DNA of 39,278 bases, from the IMG/VR virus record IMGVR_UViG_2690316285_000009, one strand, 5' to 3'. Of the stretch, positions 1 to 38,983 are shown one piece after another. Every line of letters starts with the position of its first letter. Within the stretch, counting starts at the first letter, position 1. Below the pieces are notes generated by a model. The model saw only the letters and a program-made list of their open reading frames with translations, was not told the origin of the DNA and did no database searches. This stretch comes from a virus. Taxonomy: Duplodnaviria > Heunggongvirae > Uroviricota > Caudoviricetes. A program made the position numbers and the translations under genes.

Positions 1-50
1 GCGTCACGAGCATCAGTTTTAGCTTCACCGGCGTATAGCGCGGCGATTTT

Positions 51-161: not shown

Positions 162-899
162 TCATTCACTCTCTTTCAAACCAGTTTTAACTGTTTGTGG
201 TTTTGGGTAAGGCTGGACTTTGAATAGCTTTGTGTTAAGGCGTTTTCTGGCTCTCTTGTCCAGAAACCGGATGTAACGAAACTGACGGAATTTATGAACA
301 CTGGCTCTGTCGATATTAGCCCGCAGATGTTCACCTCGCTGTCCTCCTCGTTTGATTGCATTCTTGCAAATCTCGTGATACCACTCGCCATCAAGTTCAT
401 AGAATGTTGTTTCATGACTGCCTACATAATCAAAATTGCTTGCCTGGTACACGACACCAAGACAGCCACAACGCTCATCTGCAAACGACTGAACCCACTG
501 CACCTGCGGATAAAGTTGTCTGATTAGTTTGAGCGCGTAACTGATTGCCCTTGATTCGGAGTTTCTCGGCATACAGTCATGCAGCCATAACCGGTTAAGC
601 TCCATATATTCGCGGTTCTGCGTGCCAGTTACGACGCGTGCACCATTGTTTGGATTAAGGGCATAACCCCATTGCATTACGCCAACCAGCTCCCGTTCTG
701 AAAATATGCCCAGATGAAGGTAGGAATTATTTACGAAACGATGGCTGTAATGTTTATTGACGACGACCAGCCGGGCCAGCCAGCAACTTATTGTCTCAAC
801 CCGTAACTCACGGGAGCCATAACCGACGATATTGTCGTTATAGTGAATAAGTTCAGGCGTGCTGATGATACGGGATGTAACTTGCTTTCTGTTCCCCAC
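162..899 (-). CDS. mom: Mom-like DNA modification protein; start codon uncertain (proposed GTG at 899, the ORF extends upstream to 1094)
   Basis: Terminal position next to com as in phage Mu; 5-prime end overlaps the com 3-prime end; AAGGA sequence 9 nt upstream of an in-frame GTG at 899; size about 245 aa is near the Mu Mom size as I recall it. Confidence 0.7.
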
Positions 900-1053
900 G
901 ACAGGATTTCCTTGTGTATGTGGGGTGCTCTGTGGCGCTCTGAGATGTGATTTGATTGAGGGTTTTACAGCGCGGACATTTAACTTCCAGATAACTGAAG
1001 CTGGCTCGTGCCAGTAGCTTGTTACAATGTCGGCACCGTATGTTTCGATACAT
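853..1053 (-). CDS. com: Com-like zinc-finger translational activator of mom
   Basis: Translation contains [10 protein letters not shown]...VKCPRCK, a C4 zinc-finger pattern matching the Mu Com layout; AGGAGG Shine-Dalgarno (plus coords 1064-1069) about 10 nt upstream of the ATG at 1053; overlaps the mom 5-prime end. Confidence 0.8.
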
Positions 1054-1098
1054 GGCCGCATAACCTCCTGCTTTGTTGTTGATATCTTTATCACTCAA

Positions 1099-1309: not shown

Positions 1310-1603
1310 ATGGACAATCATGTAACGACGAGAAATCGAAAAATGATTGAAAATGCGGAAATCTATAATGATTATTTTTCCGATTATTCAGATGCCTGCA
1401 AATACAGTTCGAGTGCGGGAGAGTTCATATGCTTCAACTTTTTTATTAAATCTTATGTTTTTCCTCCACAGCAAGAAGATGGAGGTGTGCCACCTCCTGA
1501 AATCACTTTGCACCGTATAGCCTCCGTCTCAATGATGGAGCAACAGGCTAATGAGCTGTATAGCATTCTGGGAACGATTCTACAAAAGCGTGAATCGGAC
1601 TAA
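1310..1603 (+). CDS. Hypothetical protein (97 aa) in AT-rich cargo DNA, opposite strand to phage genes
   Basis: ORF with AAGAGG Shine-Dalgarno 6 nt upstream of ATG; markedly AT-rich relative to the phage backbone; no recognisable motif. Confidence 0.45.
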   Translation: MDNHVTTRNRKMIENAEIYNDYFSDYSDACKYSSSAGEFICFNFFIKSYVFPPQQEDGGVPPPEITLHRIASVSMMEQQANELYSILGTILQKRESD

Positions 1604-1770: not shown

Positions 1771-2025
1771 TTACATCATGGTACTGTCAGTTCCGGGCTG
1801 AGCCGGGTCTGGTTGCTCTGGCTGCGCGTCGGTTTTCGGCTCATTATCAGCATCACTGGCCGCAACTGCTGGCCCAATAAGTTTTGCCAGCACTTCATCA
1901 ACGTAAGTGTCGATTTGTGCCTCAAAATCCTTGCGGACCTGCGCTTTCAGCAACTTATTTACTTCACCGGAATACAGTGCCTGTTTTACCAGGTCTTCAG
2001 TGACGGTGCCTTTAATTTCTGGCAT
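1771..2025 (-). CDS. Hypothetical acidic protein (84 aa) with a low-complexity D/E/P/Q-rich C-terminus
   Basis: Strong AAGGAGG Shine-Dalgarno 7 nt upstream of ATG at 2025; downstream of and co-oriented with the small membrane-protein gene. Confidence 0.55.
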   Translation of the reverse strand: MPEIKGTVTEDLVKQALYSGEVNKLLKAQVRKDFEAQIDTYVDEVLAKLIGPAVAASDADNEPKTDAQPEQPDPAQPGTDSTMM

Positions 2026-2060: not shown

Positions 2061-2243
2061 TCAGGGCTGGGTCGGGTCTTTTGGGAGCGGAGTTACCTGC
2101 GCTGTTTTACGGAGTTTTTCAGCTGCTGCGTCCTCAATTTTGCGGCGAACATAATTTCTGATGGCCTTATAACCACCACTCACCAGATATAACGCACATA
2201 CTGCCGTGCAGAAATACAATAAAATAAGCTGTAAAAATGTCAT
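2061..2243 (-). CDS. Small membrane protein (about 60 aa, one predicted transmembrane helix followed by a basic/charged tail)
   Basis: GGGAGGG Shine-Dalgarno immediately upstream of internal ATG at 2243 (the ORF track starts at 2255); hydrophobic stretch LQLILLYFCTAVCALYLV. Confidence 0.5.
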   Translation of the reverse strand: MTFLQLILLYFCTAVCALYLVSGGYKAIRNYVRRKIEDAAAEKLRKTAQVTPLPKDPTQP

Positions 2244-2339
2244 TATCCCTCCCAATTATTGACATGGTGTTGACACCGGTAATATCTGTTAGGTAAAAAG
2301 GTGCACTGCATTTTTTGCTTTGGATATAACGATCTTTTT

Positions 2340-2387: not shown

Positions 2388-4442
2388 TTACGCGTTATTC
2401 ACTTCCACCACGATACTGTCAATCAGTACCGGGTAAGTCGCATTTTTAGTGATATCGGTCACGCGCAACTTGTCTGCCGTAAACGTGCCGACCGGAGACT
2501 GCGACAGCATGAATGGTGTCCCGTCCTTACCATCAATGACCGGCGTCACCTCAATACTGTTGTTACCGGCAAAACGGAAGCCCAGCGTATGCCATTCGTT
2601 ATTAAATGCGCCGAATGACCCCAGCTTCGTGTTCTGCGCCGTGTTTCCTTTGTGATACATCACGTTAAGGTCTGTGGCATCGCTCTGTACGTAGAACGAT
2701 GCCAGCAGGTTATGACCGGCATTTCCTTCCAGAGTAACCCCTTGCGGCAGGGCAGAAACCGGCCAGTACAGCGCCAGTGCGTACTGATTAGCCGTAAGCG
2801 CGCCATCGAGTTTAAAACGACAACTGACAAGACCACCTTTACCCAGCAGGTCCGCACCATTACCAGCATCATGCTCAAGGTACCAGGGGGCTCTTCCTGT
2901 TTCCTTGGTCAGTTTCATTGCCTTACCCCCGCTGGCTCCGGCATCATCCACGATTTGAGCCTTGCCACCTCCGGCAGCCCAACCCTGTGGTGTCAACCGT
3001 CCTTCAGACTCAGATGCCCGGTAAGCAAATAGCGTACTCATCGTCGTGGTGTCTGCGGGTGGCGTGGACGGTTTTGATGGTGTATCAGGTGACGGCTTCT
3101 CATCCGGTGGTGTCACGGTCTGCCCGCGCATCAGTTCAGCCGTGCGCCCTGCATGGAGCATAATAGCTGAGGCCAGACGGTCTGAAATGACGCCCCTGCG
3201 TGCCCATGAGCTGAAATGGCTGTCACGCTGTGTCGAAACAAAACTGCCCTGGGTTCGGGATGCTGCACCGTAATACCCGACAGCCACAATATCCGGGTCT
3301 TCCGCCGGAGCATTCGTTGGCGTGCTCTGTCCATTCTCATCCGTCAGGAACGGTACAAAGAAAATTTTCTGTGCTTCCTTGCCTTTGTAGCCACCGTATA
3401 CTGCCTCATATTTATCGGTGCCAGCGTTTTTCCAGTAATACGTGGTATCACCGCAAATCCACGGCACCGTGGTGGCATTTCCACTCACGCACTGCGCAGC
3501 AAGCGGAGCCTGGTCAGTTCTGAACTGCTGAACCATGGCCGTGAATAAACTATTATGCTGCTGGCTTCCTGAGGCAAGGTCTGCCTCTCCCTGCATCCAG
3601 ACCACAGCCAGAAGTTTGTTTTTCGGGTTTTTCGCCAGCGCGACTTTGGTGCGGCTTACCAGGTCCTGATACAGAGGTTTACCGGCCCCCCAGCGTGAAG
3701 AATCAGCGGAAGCACCGCTGGCCTCACTGAATGAGCCGTCGGCTCCAGTGGTGAATGCTGACCCGCCACGACAACAGGGCACCAGAAGTATCCCGGCATT
3801 CTGTGGGATATAGGGAAGCAGTTTTTTGGCAATATGCAACCCCTGACCGACAGTCCCGTACTGGCCTTTTGCCAGATCAGCTTTCGGGTGGTTTATCCCG
3901 CTCATATCCTGAACATCATGCAGGCAGTGGTCTGCCGGAATGATGTCGTTGTATGTACACGACGTACCGTTGGGCGTTACCGTACTGCGGCGTGCCAGTT
4001 GCTTAATGCGTGGGTCCGGGCGGTCAAACGAATCCGGTAACGGCAGCCCCTCGCCGTAGGCCATGCCATTTGACTGACCCGCGAGAATGACAACAAAGTA
4101 ATATTCCGGCTCTGAACTGCTGCCATTCGTGCTACCGGAAGGCCCGGCGTTATCCGGTGCATTCCAGTCGGAGGGCGTGAGCGTTCCGGCCACGTCAGAT
4201 GTGATTGGAATGATGCCAGTCACGCCTGAACTGGTGATTTCTGCACTGGGATTACCGGATACCGGCATTACCCATAATGGCTCTTTCGTGCTGAAGCGGA
4301 TCACGCAGTCTGCGAAGGTGATCCCCCCTTTATTACCCGAAGGGCGGAAAGGGCTTTCAATAAATGCCACCGTGCCACCGGCAACCTTGACTGAAAACTC
4401 TCCGGGCATGGCGGAGAGCATTTTCCACTTGGAGTCTGACAT
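2388..4442 (-). CDS. Multi-domain SGNH/SASA-family carbohydrate O-acetylesterase (684 aa): N-terminal domain, esterase core, Pro/Thr-rich linker, C-terminal roughly 200-aa domain of unknown type
   Basis: Motifs in the translation: VVILAGQSNGMAYGEG (GQSN catalytic-serine block), VVWMQGEADLASG (QGE block), RDSHFS (D-x-H block) in the order expected for SGNH/SASA esterases; linker PPDEKPSPDTPSKPSTPPADTTT; no N-terminal signal peptide. Confidence 0.7.
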   Translation of the reverse strand: MSDSKWKMLSAMPGEFSVKVAGGTVAFIESPFRPSGNKGGITFADCVIRFSTKEPLWVMPVSGNPSAEITSSGVTGIIPITSDVAGTLTPSDWNAPDNAGPSGSTNGSSSEPEYYFVVILAGQSNGMAYGEGLPLPDSFDRPDPRIKQLARRSTVTPNGTSCTYNDIIPADHCLHDVQDMSGINHPKADLAKGQYGTVGQGLHIAKKLLPYIPQNAGILLVPCCRGGSAFTTGADGSFSEASGASADSSRWGAGKPLYQDLVSRTKVALAKNPKNKLLAVVWMQGEADLASGSQQHNSLFTAMVQQFRTDQAPLAAQCVSGNATTVPWICGDTTYYWKNAGTDKYEAVYGGYKGKEAQKIFFVPFLTDENGQSTPTNAPAEDPDIVAVGYYGAASRTQGSFVSTQRDSHFSSWARRGVISDRLASAIMLHAGRTAELMRGQTVTPPDEKPSPDTPSKPSTPPADTTTMSTLFAYRASESEGRLTPQGWAAGGGKAQIVDDAGASGGKAMKLTKETGRAPWYLEHDAGNGADLLGKGGLVSCRFKLDGALTANQYALALYWPVSALPQGVTLEGNAGHNLLASFYVQSDATDLNVMYHKGNTAQNTKLGSFGAFNNEWHTLGFRFAGNNSIEVTPVIDGKDGTPFMLSQSPVGTFTADKLRVTDITKNATYPVLIDSIVVEVNNA

Positions 4443-4513: not shown

Positions 4514-4547
4514 AATTCAAAAAAGCGTCACGGTACTTTTGGTGACG
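4514..4547 (-). terminator. Rho-independent terminator at the 3-prime end of gin
   Basis: Stem CGTCAC/GTGACG with 10-nt loop followed, on the minus strand, by a 6-T run; the gin stop codon lies inside the stem. Confidence 0.6.
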
Positions 4548-5100
4548 GAGCTGGTGAGGCAGGAAAATAACGATAAAGGGTGGAAAGGCCAATATCAAAT
4601 ATCAGTGCGATTTGTTTACGGGACTCGCCATTAGCCAGCAAACGGGCGATTTGCTCCCGCTCTTTCTCTGTCAGTTTCTGAGGTCTGCCGCCATGACGCC
4701 CCTGAGCACGGGCAGCAGCAAGACCCGCGCGTGTACGTTCAATAATGAGTTCCCGCTCCATTTCCGCCAGCGCGCCCATTATATGGAAAAAGAAACGTCC
4801 CATGGGAGTGGATGTATCAATATTGTCCGTAATGCTGCGGAAGTTAACGCCGCGTTGCCGGAGTTCTTCTGTTAAAAGGACAAGGTGCTGCATACTGCGT
4901 CCAAGGCGATCCAGTTTCCAGACCAGCAGGGTATCCCCTGGCCGGAGTCGCTTTAATGCGCGTTTAAGTCCGGGACGCTCCCTTGTCTTACCGCTTATTC
5001 TGTCTTCGAAAAACAGCTCACATCCTGCACATTCCAGCGCATTTCTTTGTAGCGCCGTATTCTGGTCATTTGTTGACACCCTGATATACCCAATCAGCAT
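4528..5100 (-). CDS. gin: Gin-type serine DNA invertase
   Basis: N-terminus MLIGYIRVSTNDQ with the catalytic serine context typical of Hin/Gin/Cin resolvase-invertases; C-terminal helix-turn-helix; sits next to an invertible segment bounded by gix-like sites. Confidence 0.9.
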   Translation of the reverse strand: MLIGYIRVSTNDQNTALQRNALECAGCELFFEDRISGKTRERPGLKRALKRLRPGDTLLVWKLDRLGRSMQHLVLLTEELRQRGVNFRSITDNIDTSTPMGRFFFHIMGALAEMERELIIERTRAGLAAARAQGRHGGRPQKLTEKEREQIARLLANGESRKQIALIFDIGLSTLYRYFPASPAPSPKVP

Positions 5101-5164: not shown

Positions 5165-5192
5165 TTTCCTGAAAACCTCGGTTTACGGGAAA
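5165..5192. other. gix-like recombination site (left)
   Basis: TTCCTGAAAACCTCGGTTTACGGGAAAC closely resembles the phage Mu gix sequence as I recall it (AAACCTCGGTTTAC core); located at the outer edge of the left inverted repeat. Confidence 0.75.
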
Positions 5193-5246
5193 CGGTAAAC
5201 AGGGCGGCGAATGCCCTGCCATCGGACGGCACCGCCGTTGCCGCGA
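5178..5246. repeat. Left copy of a 69-bp perfect inverted repeat flanking the invertible segment
   Basis: 5178-5246 is the exact reverse complement of 6427-6495 (checked base by base). Confidence 0.9.
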
Positions 5247-5539
5247 ATAGACTCGCCACCCCAAGAAATATTAATGGGGTTCCCTTTGACGGGACGCAGG
5301 ACATAAACATCACTTCTGGTATAACACAGCAGGATGCGGATTCCCGATATATCCAGGATATCAGGCTGGGAGCAGAGAACAGGCAGGTAATGTACGGTGG
5401 GGCATATTACTCTGCGTACGGTAATGTTATGGCAGGCCTGCAGATTGACAGTAAAGTTGATGCTTCAAACGATTTTATAGCATTCAGACCCCTGCAAAAA
5501 TTAGTCGGAGGTACATGGATTACGGTATCTCAGTTATAA
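5178..5539 (+). other. Silent alternative tail-fibre C-terminal coding segment (Sv-alt), expressed only after inversion
   Basis: Reading through the left inverted repeat on the plus strand continues the tail-fibre constant-part frame (..[37 protein letters not shown]..) to a TAA at 5537-5539; parallels the active variable part (..[26 protein letters not shown]..). Confidence 0.6.
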
Positions 5540-5590
5540 ATAGTCAGTAAATAATATATTTTAAAACAGATTTATTTCCAGGAGGATTTT

Positions 5591-6112
5591 ATGGAACTAA
5601 AAAATATAACCCGTTATTATCCTGAAAATATGCCATATGGTAATAATGTTCAGTATTTCCAGAGTGAAGATGGTAAGGATTTCTACGAATCCCTGCCATT
5701 ATTCACCAAAAAATATAAACTTTGCATAACACCTGACAGCGGCGTTATCTGCTCAATATCACAGGACGCCTCGGCGCTGTATCCTGCGGGGTTTTCTGTG
5801 GTTGAGGTCGATGAACTCCCTGAAGGCACGGATATTTCAGGAAACTGGAAGTTTGATAATGGCATAATCTCCCGTATTCCGGTTAACTACGCAAGAAAAC
5901 TGGAAGCAATGCGCCAGTCATATCTTAATCAGGCATATGAAAAAATTAATGACTGGAGAACGGAGCTACAACTGGGCACCATCAGCGATGAAGACAGAGC
6001 AGCACTTACCCAATGGATGGCATACATCAGTCAGGTGAAGAAAATGGAACTACCCGCCATTAAAACAGAAGCTGAATTTAACGCCATTAAATGGCCTGAG
6101 CAGCCACAGTAA
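5591..6112 (+). CDS. Tail fibre assembly protein (Tfa / Mu U family), currently antisense to late transcription
   Basis: 173-aa product with the typical Tfa layout and C-terminal ..WPE.P..; CAGGAGG Shine-Dalgarno upstream; lies 50 bp downstream of the silent Sv-alt segment. Confidence 0.85.
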   Translation: MELKNITRYYPENMPYGNNVQYFQSEDGKDFYESLPLFTKKYKLCITPDSGVICSISQDASALYPAGFSVVEVDELPEGTDISGNWKFDNGIISRIPVNYARKLEAMRQSYLNQAYEKINDWRTELQLGTISDEDRAALTQWMAYISQVKKMELPAIKTEAEFNAIKWPEQPQ

Positions 6113-6143
6113 TAAAGAAGGCCGGAAGGCCTTCTGAATATCA

Positions 6144-7025
6144 TTATATACTTGCAGCCGTCACCCATGCTCCATTTAACAGATACTGCAACGGCCGGTA
6201 ATACACGCCGCCGACGTTATCTGCCGTATTCTTACCGACATCCTGTACTTTAATTCCGGTAAGAACATTGCCGCCCCCCAGATTCAGATCCCAGCTTTCC
6301 CATGTTCCGGGCATATGTGCGGTCACCGACCCCAGTCTTATGGCGGTTACTGTTCCTGATGAGATAGTGATATCCTGCGTCCCGTCAAAGGAAACACCAT
6401 TAATTGTGTGGGCATTTGCCAGCCTGTTCGCGGCAACGGCGGTGCCGTCCGATGGCAGGGCATTCGCCGCCCTGTTTACCGTTTCCCGTAAACCGACGTT
6501 ATCGATAAAAGCCCCTTTATCCGGAATGTCTGCGCCGTTCTGCTCCCTGCGCAGGTAACGGTTATCACCTTCGCTTTTGCTGTAAACATCCAGATTATTA
6601 CGGGCGGTTCCCTTATTCTCCAGGTCGGCGAGATTCTGATCCTTCGCCAGGGCATTAACGTCAGCGGGACCAAGACTGTTTTTTGTGGCAAGCGTCCCCA
6701 GACCAAGATAACCACGGGCCAGACGCTGGGCCTCCGCACCGGCATCAGCAATTTCTTTCAGGTTATTTTTCCGGGAAAAGGCATTCGCAGCGATAATGGC
6801 TTTAATGGACAGCGTAAGCTGGTTTAACTGCGCCTTATCCGGCTGAATACTGGCTTCAGCCAGAATATTCAGCAGTTCGGCCTGGAGAATATTCAGCCAG
6901 TCCTGACCAATCCAGCTGATACCTTTTTGTCCGTCACCTTCGGTAAACCAGGTGGTGGTATTACTCTGCGCCGGTGCCAGCGCAGGCATATTCGCCACGC
7001 CGGAATTATTATCAACATGAAACAT
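6144..7025 (-). CDS. Tail fibre protein (Mu S-like); constant N-terminal part 6496-7025, currently expressed variable part 6144-6495 inside the invertible segment
   Basis: N-terminal region with GQDWLN..LNQLT pattern typical of Mu/P2-type fibres; the gene crosses the right inverted repeat. Confidence 0.85.
6427..6495. repeat. Right copy of the 69-bp inverted repeat
   Basis: Exact reverse complement of 5178-5246. Confidence 0.9.
6481..6508. other. gix-like recombination site (right)
   Basis: Reverse complement reads TTATCGATAACGTCGGTTTACGGGAAAC, sharing the GTCGGTTTACGGGAAAC core with the left site. Confidence 0.7.
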
Positions 7026-10816: not shown

Positions 10817-12158
10817 TGATCACCTCCACGCGGCGGCCACCCGGAACAAAAACCGGATCGGGGATATTGTTTCTGCGGACAAAATACTGCCAGCGGCGGC
10901 TGTTACCGGTGGCACGGTACAGCGTGACCAGTGCCGGTTCGGTGGTTCGCACCATGACCTGAAAAGCACCGGGAAGATGCACGCTCCGCGTGGTTAAATC
11001 TTCTGTCAGCGCAAGCCCTGCATCACGTAATGCAAGGGCGGTGCCGGTATGGCCCTGTGCGGACAGATCCAGCACCTGTTGTTCCATGGCATCGCTCAAA
11101 TCCCGGTTGATACGCTGCACATCAGCAGAACTTTCCAGCCAGGCCAGTCCGCCCGCACGGTCAGTATCCTGAACGTGCGTCGTATTCTGCCGGATGACCT
11201 GATCCAGCAGTTTTCCGACCGTCTGCGCCTGCGACACCAGGGCTGCACTCTGCATGACGCTCCGCAGCAGACGGATATTGTTCTGTGCCGCAGGCGTCAG
11301 ACCAATCAGGCGCTGCGGATCATCCTGTTCGCTGAGGGTGTAACGCAGGGAAGAAAGTGTGCGGTACAGCTGCGGCATGGCCTGCTCTGTCGTGCTGTCA
11401 CGGTTTGTGGTCAGGCTGCCGGACGGCGTTCCGGCTTTTCCGGTCAGCGACAGGGAAGGATCGCCGGGCAGCCCCGCCAGCACGGCAAACATTCCGGCCA
11501 GCGATTCAGCCATGCGACGGGGCGCATTAATCAGGGCGGCGGCATTCCCTTTCAGGGCAGTAAAACTGGCCGTAAAGGCACTGATATCCTGCACAATCCC
11601 CATCCCTGAAACGGCATTCTCCAGCGCATCAATTTTATCGCTGATGGTGTCGGTCATGGCCTGTACATCATGCAGACCGTCTGAAATCACCGTCCAGCCG
11701 TCTGAAAGTGTGTTAAACAGCTGATTCATTGCTGAGCCGCTTTTCTGCTCCAGCGCAGCGGCCGTATCTTCTGCCACCGAAGGGGCGGTATCGTCACTGG
11801 CGGGGATCACGTTGATCGTGAACTCAACCGTTCCCTGCTCGCTGGCGTTATAACGGCTTTCAAAGCTGTTTATCAGCACGTTTAACGTGCCGTAATCCGG
11901 GTGCATCAGTTCACCGGCACCGGGTGCACGCAGCGCATCACGCAGGCGGCTTCGCTGTGTCTGAAGATCGTCTCCGGTCACCAGAACCGTGAATGTGAAC
12001 TCCGGGAGTTTTGGCCCCAGATCATCCGCACCGCCGCTTTCACGCAGTGGGTATTCACGGCGCACAATGTTACGTCCGCCCCGTTCCCGCTGCTCCTGAT
12101 AAACCAGGAACGGTACGCCACGAAAGGAGCCACGCCCCGGCGTGTCAGTAGAGGCCAT
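10800..12158 (-). CDS. DNA circularisation protein N-like (Mu gp43-like)
   Basis: 452-aa product immediately downstream of the tape measure gene. Confidence 0.7.
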   Translation of the reverse strand: MASTDTPGRGSFRGVPFLVYQEQRERGGRNIVRREYPLRESGGADDLGPKLPEFTFTVLVTGDDLQTQRSRLRDALRAPGAGELMHPDYGTLNVLINSFESRYNASEQGTVEFTINVIPASDDTAPSVAEDTAAALEQKSGSAMNQLFNTLSDGWTVISDGLHDVQAMTDTISDKIDALENAVSGMGIVQDISAFTASFTALKGNAAALINAPRRMAESLAGMFAVLAGLPGDPSLSLTGKAGTPSGSLTTNRDSTTEQAMPQLYRTLSSLRYTLSEQDDPQRLIGLTPAAQNNIRLLRSVMQSAALVSQAQTVGKLLDQVIRQNTTHVQDTDRAGGLAWLESSADVQRINRDLSDAMEQQVLDLSAQGHTGTALALRDAGLALTEDLTTRSVHLPGAFQVMVRTTEPALVTLYRATGNSRRWQYFVRRNNIPDPVFVPGGRRVEVISEQQD

Positions 12159-12179
12159 AGTTCCCTCCGTTCCAGACGT

Positions 12180-14288
12180 TCACATCCAGGCCATGCTGTG
12201 CGGTATCATCCACATNNNNNNNNNNNNNNNNNCCACATCAATACTGCGCGCCCGCCAGCCTTCAGGGGCCACAAGCTCCACCCGTGCGGCGGTTTTCGCG
12301 GTGGCCTGTCCGCCGTTTTCGTCACTGCTGCCACGCAGTTTCTGCCAGGCCTGCGTCAGCCAGCCCCCCNNNNNNNNNNNNNNNNNNNNNNNNNNNNNNN
12401 NNNNNNNNNNNNNNNNNNNNNNNNNNNNNNNNNNNNNNNNNNNNNNNNNNNNNNNNNNNNNNNNNNNNNNNNNNNNNNNNNNNNNNNNNNNNNNNNNNNN
12501 NNNNNNNNNNNNNNNNNNNNNNNNNNNNNNNNNNNNNNNNNNNNNNNNNNNNNNNNNNNNNNNNNNNNNNNNNNNNNNNNNNNNNNNNNNNNNNNNNNNN
12601 NNNNNNNNNNNNNNNNNNNNNNNNNNNNNNCCGGCACCACGGAACAGCCCGGCAAAACGCCCCAGCCCCATGCGGTTTCCGGCCGCCGTTAGCAGACCAC
12701 CGGCACGGCTCATCATACGACCGAAGAAGCCCTGTTTACCGGCACTCTCCGCCAGTTGCTCACCGGCAGTCACGACGGTCGTGACACCCCGTCCACGTCC
12801 GGGGCCGCGTTTTTTACGGCCGCGCACGGTTTTGCCGTCACCGCTGACCACCACATCCCCGCCACCTGAGGCCAGGCCACCCGCAGGCCAGTTGGTGACC
12901 AGCACGGGCTGAACGGCAGCCGGATTTACCCCGGTAAGGAAATTCAGGAACCGGCCAGCGCGTCCGGGCTGCGTTCCCGGTACAGTGGTCTGCGGTTTGC
13001 GGAAGGGCGACGTCAGCACGGAGGTCATCGCCATGCCATAGCGTAAGGGGGTTGCGCCGAGACGTAATGCCCCCGTCCCCGCAAACCTGAGCACCTTCAG
13101 CGCACGGGAGGCGAGATACATATACATCAGGTACTTTGCGGCGGTCTGCGCACCCTGACCAATACGATCCAGTGCATCGCCATAACCGGCGTCGCGCAGT
13201 GCCTGAAGCGTTTCCCTGACTTTCTGAATGGCCCGGTAAAAGCCGGTTGCAGCGTCTCTGGCATACTCGAATCCCTGATTCAGGGCTGAGGCCGTCTGTG
13301 TGGCCAGCTTATCCTGTAAGCCGCTTTTCTGTGCCGCATCAGCATAATCCAGAAAGCCTTTCAGGCTCTTTTTCAGGCTGTCAAACGGTCCCTTTGCCAT
13401 CACCTCGCGGGCAAATCCGTCCCAGACATCGCCCATCATGGACGTCATTCCCGTCCAGGAATTCATGGCGTTTTTCTGGGCACCTTTTGCCTGTTCGGCC
13501 ATCACCTGAAATAACAGGCGAATGCTGTCCGGTCCCAGTTTTCCTTTCTCGCCTTTCTCACGGATGATCTTCTGGTTTACACCCAGCTTATCGGCCAGCA
13601 ACTGGTAAACGTTAATCCCGTATCCGGTCAGAATATTGGCGTCCGCTGCCTGGATACTCTGGCGGGCAAACATCTGTTTGAGTTGCAGGGACGCACCCTG
13701 TGCATCTGACAGTGACCAGCCGTGATAGCCGCCCTGATCCTGAAGCATGGTAATAAAGCGACGGGCTTCCCTGTCACTCATACCGAACCCGCGACTGGAG
13801 GCGTATTCCTGCATAACCCCCGCCAGCCCCCAGGTGGTGTCTTTGGCGTTCTGTACCGCCCAGGCTTTCACTGCTTCCGTTTTTGCCGTATCGCCATGAT
13901 TAATGGCGTTGAGACGCAGAATATAGTTCTCCATCTCTGCGGCCGGGCGGATAAAGGCTTTATTAAACCCGTAGACCGCAGCCCCTCCCGCCAGCATCCC
14001 GTAAAGGTTGCTTATCCGCCCGATGGTGCCGGTAATGCTGCCCTGAAGGCGGTCAAAATCTGACGTCACCGTGCGGATACTGCCACGAACACCGGCAAGC
14101 GTTCGCTGCATACGGGAGCCGACAAGTTCTGTCTCCTGACCGGCACGACGTGCTGCATTTCCAAGACCACCCAGCCCCGTCCTGCCGGAACGGGAGAATG
14201 CCCCCAGCTCCTGTGACCACTGGCGGGATTTGGCAGAAATATTGCCGAGTAAATCGACAATCAGGGAGGCTTTCAGGTTTTTTGCCAT
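12180..14288 (-). CDS. Tail tape measure protein (interrupted by N-runs at 12216-12232 and 12370-12630)
   Basis: 702-aa Gly/Ala-rich product with long predicted helical N-terminal part and Gly-rich C-terminus; position between chaperone-like gene and N. Confidence 0.75.
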   Translation of the reverse strand: MAKNLKASLIVDLLGNISAKSRQWSQELGAFSRSGRTGLGGLGNAARRAGQETELVGSRMQRTLAGVRGSIRTVTSDFDRLQGSITGTIGRISNLYGMLAGGAAVYGFNKAFIRPAAEMENYILRLNAINHGDTAKTEAVKAWAVQNAKDTTWGLAGVMQEYASSRGFGMSDREARRFITMLQDQGGYHGWSLSDAQGASLQLKQMFARQSIQAADANILTGYGINVYQLLADKLGVNQKIIREKGEKGKLGPDSIRLLFQVMAEQAKGAQKNAMNSWTGMTSMMGDVWDGFAREVMAKGPFDSLKKSLKGFLDYADAAQKSGLQDKLATQTASALNQGFEYARDAATGFYRAIQKVRETLQALRDAGYGDALDRIGQGAQTAAKYLMYMYLASRALKVLRFAGTGALRLGATPLRYGMAMTSVLTSPFRKPQTTVPGTQPGRAGRFLNFLTGVNPAAVQPVLVTNWPAGGLASGGGDVVVSGDGKTVRGRKKRGPGRGRGVTTVVTAGEQLAESAGKQGFFGRMMSRAGGLLTAAGNRMGLGRFAGLFRGAXXXXXXXXXXXXXXXXXXXXXXXXXXXXXXXXXXXXXXXXXXXXXXXXXXXXXXXXXXXXXXXXXXXXXXXXXXXXXXXXXXXXXXXXGGWLTQAWQKLRGSSDENGGQATAKTAARVELVAPEGWRARSIDVXXXXXXMWMIPHSMAWM

Positions 14289-15280: not shown

Positions 15281-16783
15281 TCACAAAATGAAACGGATCT
15301 GCGCGGCCATGAAGCGGAACTGGTTAACCAGATCCGGTGTACACATCACATCCAGACGGTTACGGTCTTTTGTGTTGCGCTCCACGAGCAGATTCTTTTT
15401 AAAGGTGTCCAGATTTTCGACCAGCCCGAGTTCCACCCATTCTTCCCCCAGTGCAATCAGCTGGAGCGTCATAATCTCCGGCGTCACGATATTCTGACCG
15501 GGCCGGACGGGAGTACCGTTATCGGCCAGTTTGTGGCGCGGGAAACGCTGCGTGATAAAGGTGCGCAGGGAATAACGCAGATATGACAGGGTGTAGATGG
15601 TTTCTACATCCAGATAGCTGGGATCGCTTTCGCCGTATGCATTCTGACGGTACATCGTCACCTGACGTTCAATCTGCACCACATCAGCGGCCGCAACGGT
15701 CACCGTGGACATGCCGGTATAAAGCAGGCTGTTTCGCTCTTCCCGCGTCAGACGAGCCGGTGCTTCAGGTGCCATACGGGCAGGCAGCGCCAGTGTCTGT
15801 AATGGTCGGGCCGGATCCGTTGACAGGGAGGGCGCACAGACCGCACAAATGGAGGCCGCCCAGACATAATCCGGCTCTGGTGCTTTAGGAATAGAAGTGC
15901 AGGTAAACAGGAAGTCATTACGGGATTCACCAAAACTGGTTGCCGTACCGAAGGTGCCGGTATGCGCCATCCAGACCATACCGTCCGACATTTTTACCGG
16001 TCCCCAGCGTTTCAGCAGTTCATCCGCCAGAATTTTGAGATTTGCCGCATCCTTATAGGGCATGACGATGTAGTTGTACTGACGATTCCCCATCCCTGAG
16101 ACGCTACGGGTGATATCGGGGTTTGTTGCCTTCTGTGTTGGCGCGACGAGCTCCAGCGTAAGACCGGCCGGTGTAGTTTCACCGTCATAATAGTTCACCC
16201 GTAAATCATGAGCTGAGCATTCACCGATAAAGCGGGCGTTAACCCCCATGCTCCCTTTAAGTCCTTCAGCATTATCACCACTGACTTCAGCTGCGATAGC
16301 AGTGAATGGCGCATCAGTGTCAGCGTTAATGACCTTAGCCAGCTCTTCCACAAGCTCTTTACCTTTTTTCCCCTTACTGACGGGCAGGAGGTAACGGCGA
16401 CCGCCGATGTAAACACTTAACACCCCGTCTGCCAATGCTGTTCCAATGATATTCATCACGCATGCCCTGGACTGACCTGTTCCAGCCCCCTGTGCAATGG
16501 CATATAACTCTGTGTCAGGGTTAATGGCGATAAATTCCTCTACCATCAGTGCAATCATGGAACCTCGCCCCCAGAGTTCTCTTGCTTGTGAAGCTCGGGT
16601 AATACGTACTGGTACATCAAGCTGACCGCGCCCCTGAATGGTGGTGTCTTTCATTGCAGCCTGACCAAACAACAGTACCGCCTGACGCTGTGGTGGAGTG
16701 CCGGTCACGGCCATTGAATTATTGATTTCAATCTGTACCAGCGGAATGCGATTGTTATCGCCGATATAATCAAAGTTAATCAT
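15281..16783 (-). CDS. Contractile tail sheath protein (Mu L-like)
   Basis: 500-aa product upstream of the tube gene; contractile-tail gene order. Confidence 0.8.
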   Translation of the reverse strand: MINFDYIGDNNRIPLVQIEINNSMAVTGTPPQRQAVLLFGQAAMKDTTIQGRGQLDVPVRITRASQARELWGRGSMIALMVEEFIAINPDTELYAIAQGAGTGQSRACVMNIIGTALADGVLSVYIGGRRYLLPVSKGKKGKELVEELAKVINADTDAPFTAIAAEVSGDNAEGLKGSMGVNARFIGECSAHDLRVNYYDGETTPAGLTLELVAPTQKATNPDITRSVSGMGNRQYNYIVMPYKDAANLKILADELLKRWGPVKMSDGMVWMAHTGTFGTATSFGESRNDFLFTCTSIPKAPEPDYVWAASICAVCAPSLSTDPARPLQTLALPARMAPEAPARLTREERNSLLYTGMSTVTVAAADVVQIERQVTMYRQNAYGESDPSYLDVETIYTLSYLRYSLRTFITQRFPRHKLADNGTPVRPGQNIVTPEIMTLQLIALGEEWVELGLVENLDTFKKNLLVERNTKDRNRLDVMCTPDLVNQFRFMAAQIRFIL

Positions 16784-18470: not shown

Positions 18471-19418
18471 TTACAGATAATCCGCGACAACCAGCTCCAG
18501 CTTGCCCTTCATCTCGTTAGAGACGGTGGTGTTACCGTCCGCGAACAGCTCGCGCTCCAGCAGCTGCACCGCCTGTTTTTCCAGCGAGGTGGGGACAACA
18601 ATATGGGTGGGTTTGATGCCGAGTTTGCGGCCACCGTCAGCCTTAAAGTCACGCATGGCTGACCAGCCGTGCCACAGCGCATCCAGCGTCAGCGGTGACT
18701 GCATCATGTAGGCCATCTGCCAGAAGCCGTAGCCCACATTGCGACGGGCGGAAGCACCGAACACAAACTCGTTATCAGTAAACGCACGGCCTTCATCGAC
18801 TTTTGTCTGGGCAACCAGTTCGGCCTTGCGGCGATCCTGATAAATCAGCGGTTTTACCGCGCGGGAGCAGTCAAGCAGATACCAGGCCGGGCCGCTGTAA
18901 TCCGCCTGTGCACCGACAGAGCCGGTTTTTGCCACAAACATATTGCTGACCATCTGTGCATCACCGGAGCCATCCACTTTGGGGTAAACAGGGTGTTCGG
19001 TATCAAAGAAGTTCTGGCCGTCATAGCAGGCCGCATTCAGACCATCACGCAGTGCAGCAAAGACCAGTTCATCCGGTTGTGCCGCCGCAGCGCGCCCCAT
19101 CTCCTGGAACAACGGGGAGTAGATGCCAAGATTGTCGTCTTCAAAGTCATCGCGGCTAATGGCAACGGTGCCTTCAAAGGTTTTGTTCACGATGGCGTAG
19201 CCATAGGCTTTCATCTTCTCGATGACGCGGGAGCCGATCCACTCACGGAACTGCGGGAACTGCCCCAGCCAGCCGTAGGTGTTGGATTTCGACGTGGACG
19301 GTACGGTCATCGCAATTTTCTGGTACTGAGACGGAGCCATGGACATCCCGGCCTGAAAATCAGAACGGTAGCCCGTCATCAGGGCGGTGATCATCGCCGG
19401 TGTGATCGGGGTAGGCAT
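18471..19418 (-). CDS. Major head (capsid) protein, Mu T-like
   Basis: 315-aa product downstream of the I-like protease/scaffold gene; Mu-type head module order. Confidence 0.85.
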   Translation of the reverse strand: MPTPITPAMITALMTGYRSDFQAGMSMAPSQYQKIAMTVPSTSKSNTYGWLGQFPQFREWIGSRVIEKMKAYGYAIVNKTFEGTVAISRDDFEDDNLGIYSPLFQEMGRAAAAQPDELVFAALRDGLNAACYDGQNFFDTEHPVYPKVDGSGDAQMVSNMFVAKTGSVGAQADYSGPAWYLLDCSRAVKPLIYQDRRKAELVAQTKVDEGRAFTDNEFVFGASARRNVGYGFWQMAYMMQSPLTLDALWHGWSAMRDFKADGGRKLGIKPTHIVVPTSLEKQAVQLLERELFADGNTTVSNEMKGKLELVVADYL

Positions 19419-20542
19419 TATTGCATTTCCTCTTTCATTTTCAGGAACTCGGCTTCGGTTTTACCCAGCAGATGGGCGGCGGCGATATCTTCAGCCGACA
19501 GCGCAGCGGTGGCGGTCTTTTTATCCGGCACGGTTACGGTGTCGGTCTGAAGAGTGGTCAGAGCCGCAACCGGCTGGCGGGCGTCAAGCTGTGCAGAAAG
19601 TGCCGCAACACCAATCTGTTGTCCGAGTCCTTCCATGTATCCGCGTTCGCTTTTGAAAATGCGTCCTTCGGACTCGGCCTTATCCAGCAACTGCTCCAGC
19701 GTGGTGCTGCCGTGTTGTGCCGACAACGCGACATATTCGGTACGCAGGGCGTTATACGTCTCAACGGGCACGTATTTCGTCAGATCAATAGTGCCGCCAG
19801 TTGGTGTGCCTTTTGCGGTTTCCAGCTCTGCCGACAGGCTGGCAACCTGCGTTTTCAGGGTGTCGTGCGCATCCGCACGGGTTTTGATCCCGGTAAGGGC
19901 AGACAGCGCCGCCGTGCCCAGTTCCGGTGTAAATTCGTCACCGTCGGCCACGGTCAGACCGAGCGCCGTCAGCAACTGGCGTAATTGCTCATTCATGGAG
20001 GTGTCCTTTAAAGGAGGGTTTAAGGCGTTATAAAGGTCATCCGCCGACAGTGCGGCGACAGGATTCATGCCAGTCAGACCGGGGTCACCGGTAATAGCCA
20101 GCATCCGAAGCTCAACAGGTTCACCGGTGATTTCGTCATAACCAATCACCGGGGAAAACCAGGGAAATTCGTTATTGCGCAGGTGTTCAATGGCCGGAGG
20201 GTTCCAGTCCGGACGCACTTCAAAACCCCGCTCTTCACTGAAGCGGAAGTTTTCCGGTGAGGCCATGACAAAACCGGCAGCCGGTGCCGGATGCCCCTTA
20301 ATCAGGGTCTGGTGGTTGTAGTCAATTTTTACCGGCTGATTGAGCGCCACAACCCGGGATACCATGCGCTCAACGGCCGCATGGTTAATCAGCCAGCCTT
20401 CCGCCGGTTTTTCCGGGCGACCGTCACGGGCCTTTACCCGACCGGCTGGCATGATCTGACACCAGTCACCGTCCCCGTCTGCGGACAGGCTGATGGCATT
20501 CAGAATGGCATAAGCAAGTTTGGGCGTGTTTTTCGTCTTCAT
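19418..20542 (-). CDS. Head maturation protease / scaffold, Mu I-like
   Basis: 374-aa product immediately upstream of the major head gene; preceded by a 180-bp intergenic region consistent with a late promoter. Confidence 0.75.
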   Translation of the reverse strand: MKTKNTPKLAYAILNAISLSADGDGDWCQIMPAGRVKARDGRPEKPAEGWLINHAAVERMVSRVVALNQPVKIDYNHQTLIKGHPAPAAGFVMASPENFRFSEERGFEVRPDWNPPAIEHLRNNEFPWFSPVIGYDEITGEPVELRMLAITGDPGLTGMNPVAALSADDLYNALNPPLKDTSMNEQLRQLLTALGLTVADGDEFTPELGTAALSALTGIKTRADAHDTLKTQVASLSAELETAKGTPTGGTIDLTKYVPVETYNALRTEYVALSAQHGSTTLEQLLDKAESEGRIFKSERGYMEGLGQQIGVAALSAQLDARQPVAALTTLQTDTVTVPDKKTATAALSAEDIAAAHLLGKTEAEFLKMKEEMQ

Positions 20543-38231: not shown

Positions 38232-38398
38232 ACTTCCTCTATTCTAAAAAGTTACCCGCGCGGATATTCGTGCGGATATCTGTACGGGTAAATAATAGAA
38301 CAAACAAAAGAACCAAATCAAGGTATTTTGTTCTTTTTATTCTTTGCGGTGTTTTTGTTATTAATATCAATAAGATAAATAAAAAGGAACCTGAGAGC
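38232..38398. promoter_or_regulatory. Divergent early/repressor promoter-operator region between ner and c
   Basis: AT-rich 167-bp divergent intergenic region; dyad TTACCCG..CGGGTAA at 38252-38289 enclosing repeated CGGATAT units. Confidence 0.6.
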
Positions 38399-38983
38399 AT
38401 GAACATGAAAAACAGTTCTTTTCTCGACGAAGGAAAAGAACCAGTGATCGAACGGATTTTTCGTCTTGCAGAGCGTTACAAATCGAGAAGTGAGGCGGCT
38501 AGAGCATGGGGAATAAACGTTCAGACATTGCAGAACTACTACAAAAGGAGAAACAATCAGCCGCCACCACAACCAAGAAAGCACCATCTCCAGAACATTG
38601 CAGAAAGAGAACATGTATCTATGGAGTGGCTGGTCAATGGTTATGGTGATGAGCCAAGCATGAAAAAAGAACCAATTGAACAAACAAAAAGAACAAAAAA
38701 ACAAAGAATTGATGATAGTGATTCCATCATCATGAGGGCGTGGGACTCGCTAACTTCATCTGAACAAGAGATTTTGTCCAACTTATTGATCAGAAAAGGG
38801 GCCGAACTACTAACCGTTTTGCTTGATACAGATATTCAAAAACTGCACTCATTGAGCGGAGTCAAAAGAGCACTAGCATTGAGTCTACAAGAGTTACCCG
38901 ATGATACTGTAAGAGAGATTTATGAAGAATGTGAAGCTAAGGTTAATCATTTAAATGTAACCCAGAAAAAGGCTGGTGCGTAA
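38399..38983 (+). CDS. c: Mu-type repressor c (start proposed at ATG 38399; the ORF track extends to 38270)
   Basis: Divergent from ner/A/B; C-terminal part resembles the Mu repressor pattern; AAGGAA Shine-Dalgarno upstream of the ATG at 38399; the longer ORF would begin inside the operator region. Confidence 0.7.
   Translation: MNMKNSSFLDEGKEPVIERIFRLAERYKSRSEAARAWGINVQTLQNYYKRRNNQPPPQPRKHHLQNIAEREHVSMEWLVNGYGDEPSMKKEPIEQTKRTKKQRIDDSDSIIMRAWDSLTSSEQEILSNLLIRKGAELLTVLLDTDIQKLHSLSGVKRALALSLQELPDDTVREIYEECEAKVNHLNVTQKKAGA

Follow-up and report, generated by a model that had tools for sequence, protein, structure and literature searches.

A probable NanS-p-type sialate O-acetylesterase of a Mu-like prophage with an N-terminal domain in the place of DUF1737

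The stretch of DNA analysed here, 39,278 nucleotides from a member of the Caudoviricetes (IMG/VR record IMGVR_UViG_2690316285_000009, hereafter the window), carries on its minus strand an open reading frame (ORF), confirmed at 2388..4442, that begins with ATG and encodes a protein of 684 amino acids (aa). This protein most probably belongs, as a functional enzyme, to the NanS-p group of prophage sialate O-acetylesterases, with a specificity that we read from its homologues. The family is already known and experimentally characterised, and so is its likely substrate. What is novel here is an N-terminal domain not previously described, which replaces DUF1737, together with the Mu-like element that hosts the gene; in the searchable literature we found no paper pairing "NanS-p" with "Mu-like". 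The coding sequence and its parts, from the N-terminus onwards, are as follows.

2388..4442, minus strand: complete coding sequence of the probable NanS-p-type sialate O-acetylesterase (stop codon 2388-2390; matches to PHROG 143, 3PT5 and 6YP6)
4164..4442, minus strand: N-terminal domain, residues 1-93, predicted all-beta cupin-like small barrel in DUF1737's place (AlphaFold2 model, alignments)
4104..4163, minus strand: linker 1, residues 94-113, Ser/Gly/Asn/Pro-rich and variable (alignments; predicted local distance difference test, pLDDT, <50 from residue 82)
3153..4103, minus strand: catalytic SGNH/SASA (NanS-like) esterase domain, residues 114-430 (Pfam SASA, identity to 3PT5, catalytic blocks)
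3039..3152, minus strand: linker 2, residues 431-468, Pro/Thr/Ser-rich (composition)
2391..3038, minus strand: C-terminal lectin-like jelly-roll domain (DUF6645), residues 469-684, putative carbohydrate-binding module (Pfam, 6YP6)

The first-pass annotation, a reading of the letters and translations, had proposed an SGNH/SASA-type O-acetylesterase, and the Pfam profile search agrees with it, giving a significant SASA match at residues 117-311 (E = 8.8e-13). In the PDB search residues 112-428 matched E. coli NanS (3PT5, E = 1.2e-116), to which the catalytic domain is 57% identical over 318 aa by BLASTP, while PHROG 143 matched from residue 71 to the C-terminal end (E = 2.6e-295). At the C-terminus, where about 200 aa of a carbohydrate-binding type had been expected, there are 216 aa with a DUF6645 match at residues 533-650 (E = 7.8e-68), and residues 469-683 match NanS-p 6YP6 (E = 7.3e-98; 69% identity over 216 aa), the lectin-like jelly-roll C-terminal domain of the phi24B esterase. 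The four aromatic residues proposed for the phi24B binding site, Y510, Y515, Y540 and F611 (PMC10462455), are kept as Y554, Y559, Y584 and F654. The identities to NanS and 6YP6, together with the DUF1378 and DUF826 genes that lie downstream, therefore place the protein in the NanS-p family of sialate O-acetylesterases, and the kinship with the prophage sialate esterases of enterohaemorrhagic E. coli that had been named in the first-pass annotation is borne out. For the folds of both domains we preferred the 3PT5 and 6YP6 matches to a full-length AlphaFold2 model built on a 28-sequence alignment, which was unusable (mean pLDDT 45). An identical protein is deposited at NCBI as WP_052987389.1, "YjhS [Shigella sonnei]", and near-identical loci are present in E. 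coli. Names at NCBI are "sialate O-acetylesterase" or "YjhS", and the Prokaryotic Genome Annotation Pipeline (PGAP)/RefSeq uses "DUF6645 domain-containing protein".

Canonical SGNH hydrolases possess a Ser-His-Asp triad, and their block V reads D-x-x-H. In the protein of the window GQSN occupies residues 122-125, with the putative nucleophile Ser124 at codon 4071-4073, RGGS residues 225-228, QGE residues 284-286 and DSH residues 407-409, with the codon of His409 at 3216-3218 within R-D-S-H. The blocks GQSN, QGE and D-x-H are thus where the first-pass annotation had seen them, but the last had been misread in part. The residue three positions before His409 is Arg406 and not Asp, so that D-x-x-H does not occur here, and the position of D407 holds Ala in NanS-p of 933W and in the Mu-type copy of O157, and Ser in NanS. 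Across the aligned Mu-type and lambdoid proteins, which span four architectures, S124, G227, Q284-G285-E286, R406, S408 and H409 are invariant. To judge from this alignment, the conserved block is R406-x-S408-H409 and the "D-x-H" is coincidental. NanS itself (3PT5) has GQSNA, RGGSAF, MQGEFD and R-x-SHFS as blocks, and a main-chain oxygen has been reported in the place of its catalytic acid (PMC10792757). The missing triad Asp is a family trait and no defect; since NanS also does without the Ser-His-Asp triad, its lack does not speak against an esterase, and Ser-His-Asp geometry, chosen beforehand as the yardstick, was the wrong one for this family (PMC10792757). Purifying selection is strong in both large domains, with omega of 0.09 in the catalytic and 0.12 in the C-terminal domain.

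The target, which had been called unknown, has a default in O-acetylated sialic acid (Neu5,9Ac2 and mucin sialoglycans), because the catalytic domain is 57% identical to the characterised NanS and up to 93% identical to DUF1737-type NanS-p proteins. The NanS-p enzymes of EDL933 and O104:H4 are active Neu5,9Ac2 esterases; NanS-p enzymes also de-O-acetylate mucin sialoglycans and enable lysogens to grow on Neu5,9Ac2 (PMC8065619, PMC8319020). A Kyte-Doolittle scan, run with no dedicated signal-peptide predictor, found no hydrophobic h-region near the N-terminus, which is consistent with a protein that has no Sec signal, as had been noted earlier. The Pro/Thr-rich linker that had also been pointed out is indeed there, with 57% P+T+S over residues 436-470.

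The unusual part of the protein, overlooked in the first-pass annotation, is its N-terminal domain, which is not DUF1737. A flanking domain of about 110 aa had been proposed; the domain is real but smaller, a folded unit of about 80-93 aa followed by a 20-aa linker. For residues 1-93 AlphaFold2 predicts an all-beta fold whose six strands span residues 7-79 (pLDDT 74.8, predicted template modelling score 0.66) and which resembles small cupin-like barrels, some of which are dimerisation or ring-forming domains (the Mif2p and CENP-C cupins, TRAP). DUF1737 (PF08410), which covers residues 3-53 in NanS-p of 933W (PMC10462455), instead folds as one helix and three strands (preprint bioRxiv 10.64898/2026.04.10.717836). 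With residues 1-113 as query, Pfam gave no match even at E <= 10, and PHROG gave none that was significant, the single marginal one being phrog_27997 (E = 0.021); hhalign of the N-terminal domain against DUF1737 returned a probability of 0.5%. Likewise, PF08410 is missing from the precomputed Pfam list for P0008-P0029 and is listed for the full-length DUF1737-type hits (P0030 onward). The region is genuinely coding, because the nonsynonymous difference (pN) is 0.23 against a saturated synonymous one (pS) of 0.78 in the comparison with the 62%-identical O157-type copy.

The distribution of this domain is narrow. HMMER, run exhaustively over 1.84 billion representative proteins, returned only esterase fragments, one diverged homologue and one weak match (P0007, E = 7e-4), which is of low complexity, looks spurious and was discarded. 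Nothing further came from word-indexed searches of 5.8 billion proteins, whether with a single sequence or with a profile; neither kind of search found the domain standing alone or joined to another enzyme, and two scans of species-representative genomes gave no match. The wider matches come from E. coli/Shigella and Salmonella, plus one labelled Serratia, and all are pieces of esterases. Three sequence types can be distinguished, each followed in every case by a linker and a NanS-type esterase: the window's own in E. coli and Shigella; a second, 62% identical, in an O157-associated Mu-like phage (for example the copy within the Stx2c phage LC727881); and a third, 30% identical, in Salmonella enterica, where one cluster fragment is labelled Serratia marcescens. 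All of the loci examined (36/36), the Salmonella type included, lie in a Mu-like context, in the order baseplate gp47 and gp48, S/U fibre genes, gin (sometimes deleted), esterase, DUF1378, DUF826, com and mom. Among complete E. coli genomes 32 of 5,426 have the domain, always on the chromosome and in at most three places each; some genomes (hits H100, H108 and H112) carry the Mu-type esterase in two or three chromosomal places, as would fit either several copies of a Mu-like prophage or recombinant ones. All eight members of the Salmonella-type cluster (P0006) are partial, the one inspected (L005 10001-10461) stopping at a contig end, and many copies in E. coli are likewise incomplete, probably because the esterase body is a repeat present in several copies, at which assemblies from short reads break. 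We also considered as a counter-example a DUF1737-type protein of strain M3 and rejected it: the Mu-like prophage of M3 bears a Mu-type esterase of 689 aa, and therefore the DUF1737-type copy lies elsewhere in that genome.

The protein is a modular mosaic. Mu-type proteins share 97-100% identity in their first 93 aa and 80-99% in the catalytic and C-terminal domains. DUF1737-type proteins of other prophages are 79-93% identical to the window's esterase in the catalytic domain and 81-95% in the C-terminal domain, and in linker 2 they reach 100% in some cases. From these per-domain identities it follows that the body passes by recombination from one phage type to another and that the N-terminus remains tied to the Mu-like backbone: to judge from the alignments, a fixed, lineage-specific N-terminus sits on a freely recombining enzyme body. 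Two IMG/VR loci, L007 (754-5139) and L012 (3545-7746), have gin and an intact Mu-type esterase and then, in place of the Mu right end, a lambdoid lysis and late region resembling that of 933W, with 85-88% identity in DUF1378, 97-99% in holin S and 92-95% in endolysin R; in L012 the Mu right end (DUF826-com-mom) recurs inverted at about 11490-12691. These junctions are either true recombinants through the shared esterase body (nanS paralogues) or assembly chimeras at a repeat.

The genomic setting is that of a Mu-like prophage, as the first-pass annotation had recognised together with the neighbouring tail-fibre inversion system. Pfam identifies MuA, MuB, the Mu portal, Mu F, gpI, gpT, a contractile sheath and a tape measure in the window, and these transposition, head and sheath genes occur along with a G segment, gin and com/mom. 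The features nearest to the esterase are these.

4528..5100, minus strand: gin-type serine DNA invertase, directly upstream of the esterase (Pfam Resolvase and HTH_7; Mu order gin-com-mom)
5171..6503, no strand assigned: G-type invertible tail-fibre segment (inverted repeats 5171-5319 / 6355-6503)
2061..2255, minus strand: DUF1378 small protein with one long hydrophobic stretch, first gene past the esterase (Pfam E = 1.8e-30)
1771..2025, minus strand: DUF826 small acidic protein, second gene past the esterase (Pfam E = 6.4e-16)
162..1098, minus strand: com at 853-1098 and mom at 162-869 (the latter from PGAP on a near-identical record; Pfam Mom E = 1.6e-77; Mu annotation)

A repeat search resolved the arms of the inverted repeats into 86 nucleotides at 94% and 50 nucleotides at 82% complementarity, and a tail-fibre assembly protein (5591-6112, Pfam) lies inside the invertible segment. 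Between gin and com there are 3.4 kb in the window against about 95 bp in phage Mu; in this interval lie the esterase, DUF1378, DUF826 and an ORF on the opposite strand. Of the 34 IMG/VR Mu-type loci, 29 retain DUF826 past the esterase, as does L002; DUF1378 also comes directly after nanS-p in 933W and Stx2_95, and in Shiga toxin (Stx) phages both sit between nanS-p and S (PMC10462455). Judged by gene content, esterase, DUF1378 and DUF826 form a three-gene cassette in common with the lambdoid Stx phages, inserted between gin and com/mom.

Several other observations concern this right end. The opposite-strand ORF (1310-1603, plus strand, 97 aa), which lies between DUF826 and com, has no Pfam or PHROG match; its counterpart in E. 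coli relatives is the conserved hypothetical protein WP_000571916.1 of PGAP. Window positions 1-34 match the IS110-family element ISEc20 at 97-100% identity, and prophage matches in E. coli genomes start at window positions 23-34; therefore the Mu-like right end abuts a copy of the insertion sequence. In the window com is intact, as an 81-aa ORF with a TTG start; in E. coli JE86-ST05 it is frameshifted (L001 3822-4021, window ~853-1052), and several relatives, strain M3 and loci L011-L014 among them, have lost gin. The O157-type Mu-like phage that sits within a Stx2c phage has after com a 350-aa ORF and not mom (L002 9420-10472), with a C5-cytosine-methyltransferase-like motif, GGTPCQAFS, recognised by eye only; other O157-type loci retain mom at 96-98% identity. 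The Mu right end can apparently exchange its DNA-modification gene.

Compared with known systems, the protein shares most with lambdoid NanS-p (933W z1466/L0105; phi24B vb_24B_21/gp84): a SASA domain 70% identical to that of 933W and up to 93% to other DUF1737-type alleles, the lectin-like DUF6645 C-terminus with its conserved aromatics, a Pro/Thr linker, the lack of a signal peptide, and DUF1378 and DUF826 as the next genes. It differs from them in its N-terminus, a 93-aa all-beta domain without DUF1737, and in its place: the lambdoid genes lie downstream of Q/stx and upstream of holin S and the lysis genes, whereas this one lies between gin and com/mom in a transposable prophage of the Mu-like myovirus type. 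With chromosomal NanS (YjhS, 3PT5) it shares, beyond the identity given above, the same atypical blocks GQSN, RGGS, QGE and R-x-S-H, but NanS is a single-domain protein of the chromosomal nan regulon and this one is phage-borne, with additional N- and C-terminal domains. P2-like prophages (Peduoviridae; vB_EcoM-569R5, P88-like) are also non-lambdoid, contractile-tailed and equipped with a NanS-type esterase as an accessory gene of the late region; unlike here, its N-terminus resembles a diverged DUF1737 (AELTQKVNEHLAKGWHLQG; by eye and from the record annotation). In P2-like E. coli phage records the esterase lies just past the lysis genes (L041 1-1464, L043 1-1251), and both records end within the gene. 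The order of the right end, S/U, invertible G segment, gin, com and mom, is that of Mu, SfMu and D108, and Mom is about 76-78% identical to those of the three phages (78% to Mu Mom); the esterase cassette is present here and in none of them.

In the mechanism that we propose, the SASA domain would strip O-acetyl groups from 9-O-acetylated, and probably also 7/8-O-acetylated, sialic acids, either free or on mucin glycans. Ser124 would be the nucleophile and His409 the base, with no canonical Asp, and the oxyanion hole would be built from the GQSN, RGGS and QGE blocks as in NanS, while the lectin-like jelly-roll domain would direct the enzyme to glycans. Because there is no secretion signal, we infer release through prophage induction and lysis, so that the enzyme would meet its substrate when the induced cell lyses, being virion-attached and/or free. 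Deacetylation would yield Neu5Ac, which the host Nan pathway can use. The esterase body exchanges freely with lambdoid nanS-p alleles by recombination, and the N-terminal barrel would be an attachment or oligomerisation module for Mu-like particles, the equivalent of DUF1737.

How the N-terminal domain acts is the part most in need of weighing. For phi24B it has been reported that DUF1737 forms hexamers lodged in the hexon at the centre of each T=9 capsid face, and that NanS-p (gp84) is a proteolytically processed virion protein and so a capsid-decorating enzyme (preprint bioRxiv 10.64898/2026.04.10.717836). The domain of the window holds exactly the position of this anchor, is bound to its lineage and persists, with the same arrangement, down to 30% identity in Salmonella. 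This suggests a module that has to fit some component of the Mu-like phage, in the simplest case a place of attachment on the virion, and it is possible, although we put it forward tentatively, that the barrel is a virion-attachment module displaying the esterase on Mu-like myovirus particles, analogous to DUF1737 and structurally unrelated to it. We give somewhat more credence, though short of an even chance, to a different role, in which the domain would be a glycan-binding or oligomerisation part of a soluble "public good" enzyme released by lysis, its restriction to Mu-like prophages being due to common descent. The predicted cupin-like fold, which includes dimerisation and ring-forming domains, is in favour of the latter, as are the relatedness of all known carriers, which are enterobacterial Mu-like prophages, and the fact that, unlike DUF1737, the domain was never found alone or on other enzymes in the searches. 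On the other hand, the N-terminus has stayed fixed (97-100%) despite the exchange of the body with lambdoid alleles, as would be expected if a match to the Mu-like phage were required, and its position and its maintenance in Salmonella also argue for attachment.

Several points count against a virion anchor, or against our reading of the enzyme as a whole. The major head protein gpT (window 18471-19418) is 90% identical between two lineages that share just 62% identity in the N-terminal domain, so that the domain does not obviously co-vary with the capsid, which is in favour of the soluble enzyme; common descent of the carrier prophages could account for the association of the N-terminus with Mu-like elements; and the capsid binding of phi24B gp84 is known from a preprint, and that anchor is missing here. 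Additionally, the specificity of this allele could differ from that of the characterised enzymes, because the identity is just 57% to NanS and about 70% to the catalytic domain of 933W, and promoter and terminator scans gave counts not above those of shuffled sequence, so that they provide no expression signal. When the window is compared with the O157-type Mu-like phage, most proteins are 85-99% identical; the esterase cassette and the fibre genes also diverge, and the outliers are the sheath (71%, 15281-16783), the protease/scaffold gpI (74%, 19418-20542) and the repressor (42%, 38270-38983). A search for a partner of the N-terminal domain by protein divergence thus pointed to the sheath and gpI, but two lineages give it no statistical power.

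Two further explanations concern the enzyme itself. A virion-associated deacetylase that modifies receptors on O-antigen or capsule, aiding adsorption of the Mu-like phage, would suit a phage-borne gene beside tail-fibre and invertase genes, a lectin-like domain and a relative, phi24B gp84, that is a virion protein; the same possibility has been raised for NanS-p in a review (PMC8065619). We regard it as improbable: NanS, to which the catalytic domain is 57% identical, acts on 9-O-acetyl-Neu5Ac, the NanS-p homologues deacetylate Neu5,9Ac2 and mucin sialoglycans, the body (up to 93% in the catalytic domain) is common to prophages with other tails and presumably other receptors, and phage Mu lives without the gene. 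That the gene is an inactive relic or passenger of a defective prophage is less credible still. Some relatives have lost gin or carry a frameshifted com, and the scans for expression signals were empty; against this, the ORF is intact with all catalytic blocks conserved, omega is about 0.1, its 90%-identity cluster counts 599 members, and the window holds a full Mu-like set of transposition, head and tail genes.

We conclude that the esterase can confidently carry the annotation NanS-p-type sialate O-acetylesterase instead of the "DUF6645 domain-containing protein" of PGAP. In this sense, the use of O-acetylated host sialic acid by gut E. coli and Shigella would be spread also by transposable Mu-like prophages, beyond the lambdoid Stx-type phages. 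Recombination between Mu-like and lambdoid prophages appears to use the esterase body as its bridge, and a constant N-terminus on an exchanged body offers a clean natural case of adaptor swapping. If the N-terminal domain is a virion anchor, temperate enterobacterial phages of unrelated morphotypes would have armed their particles independently with the same mucus-modifying enzyme, the adaptor domain alone being swapped. Furthermore, the domain would then be a handle for finding its partner in the Mu-like virion, and enzyme-decorated capsids would extend from phi24B to a different phage family.

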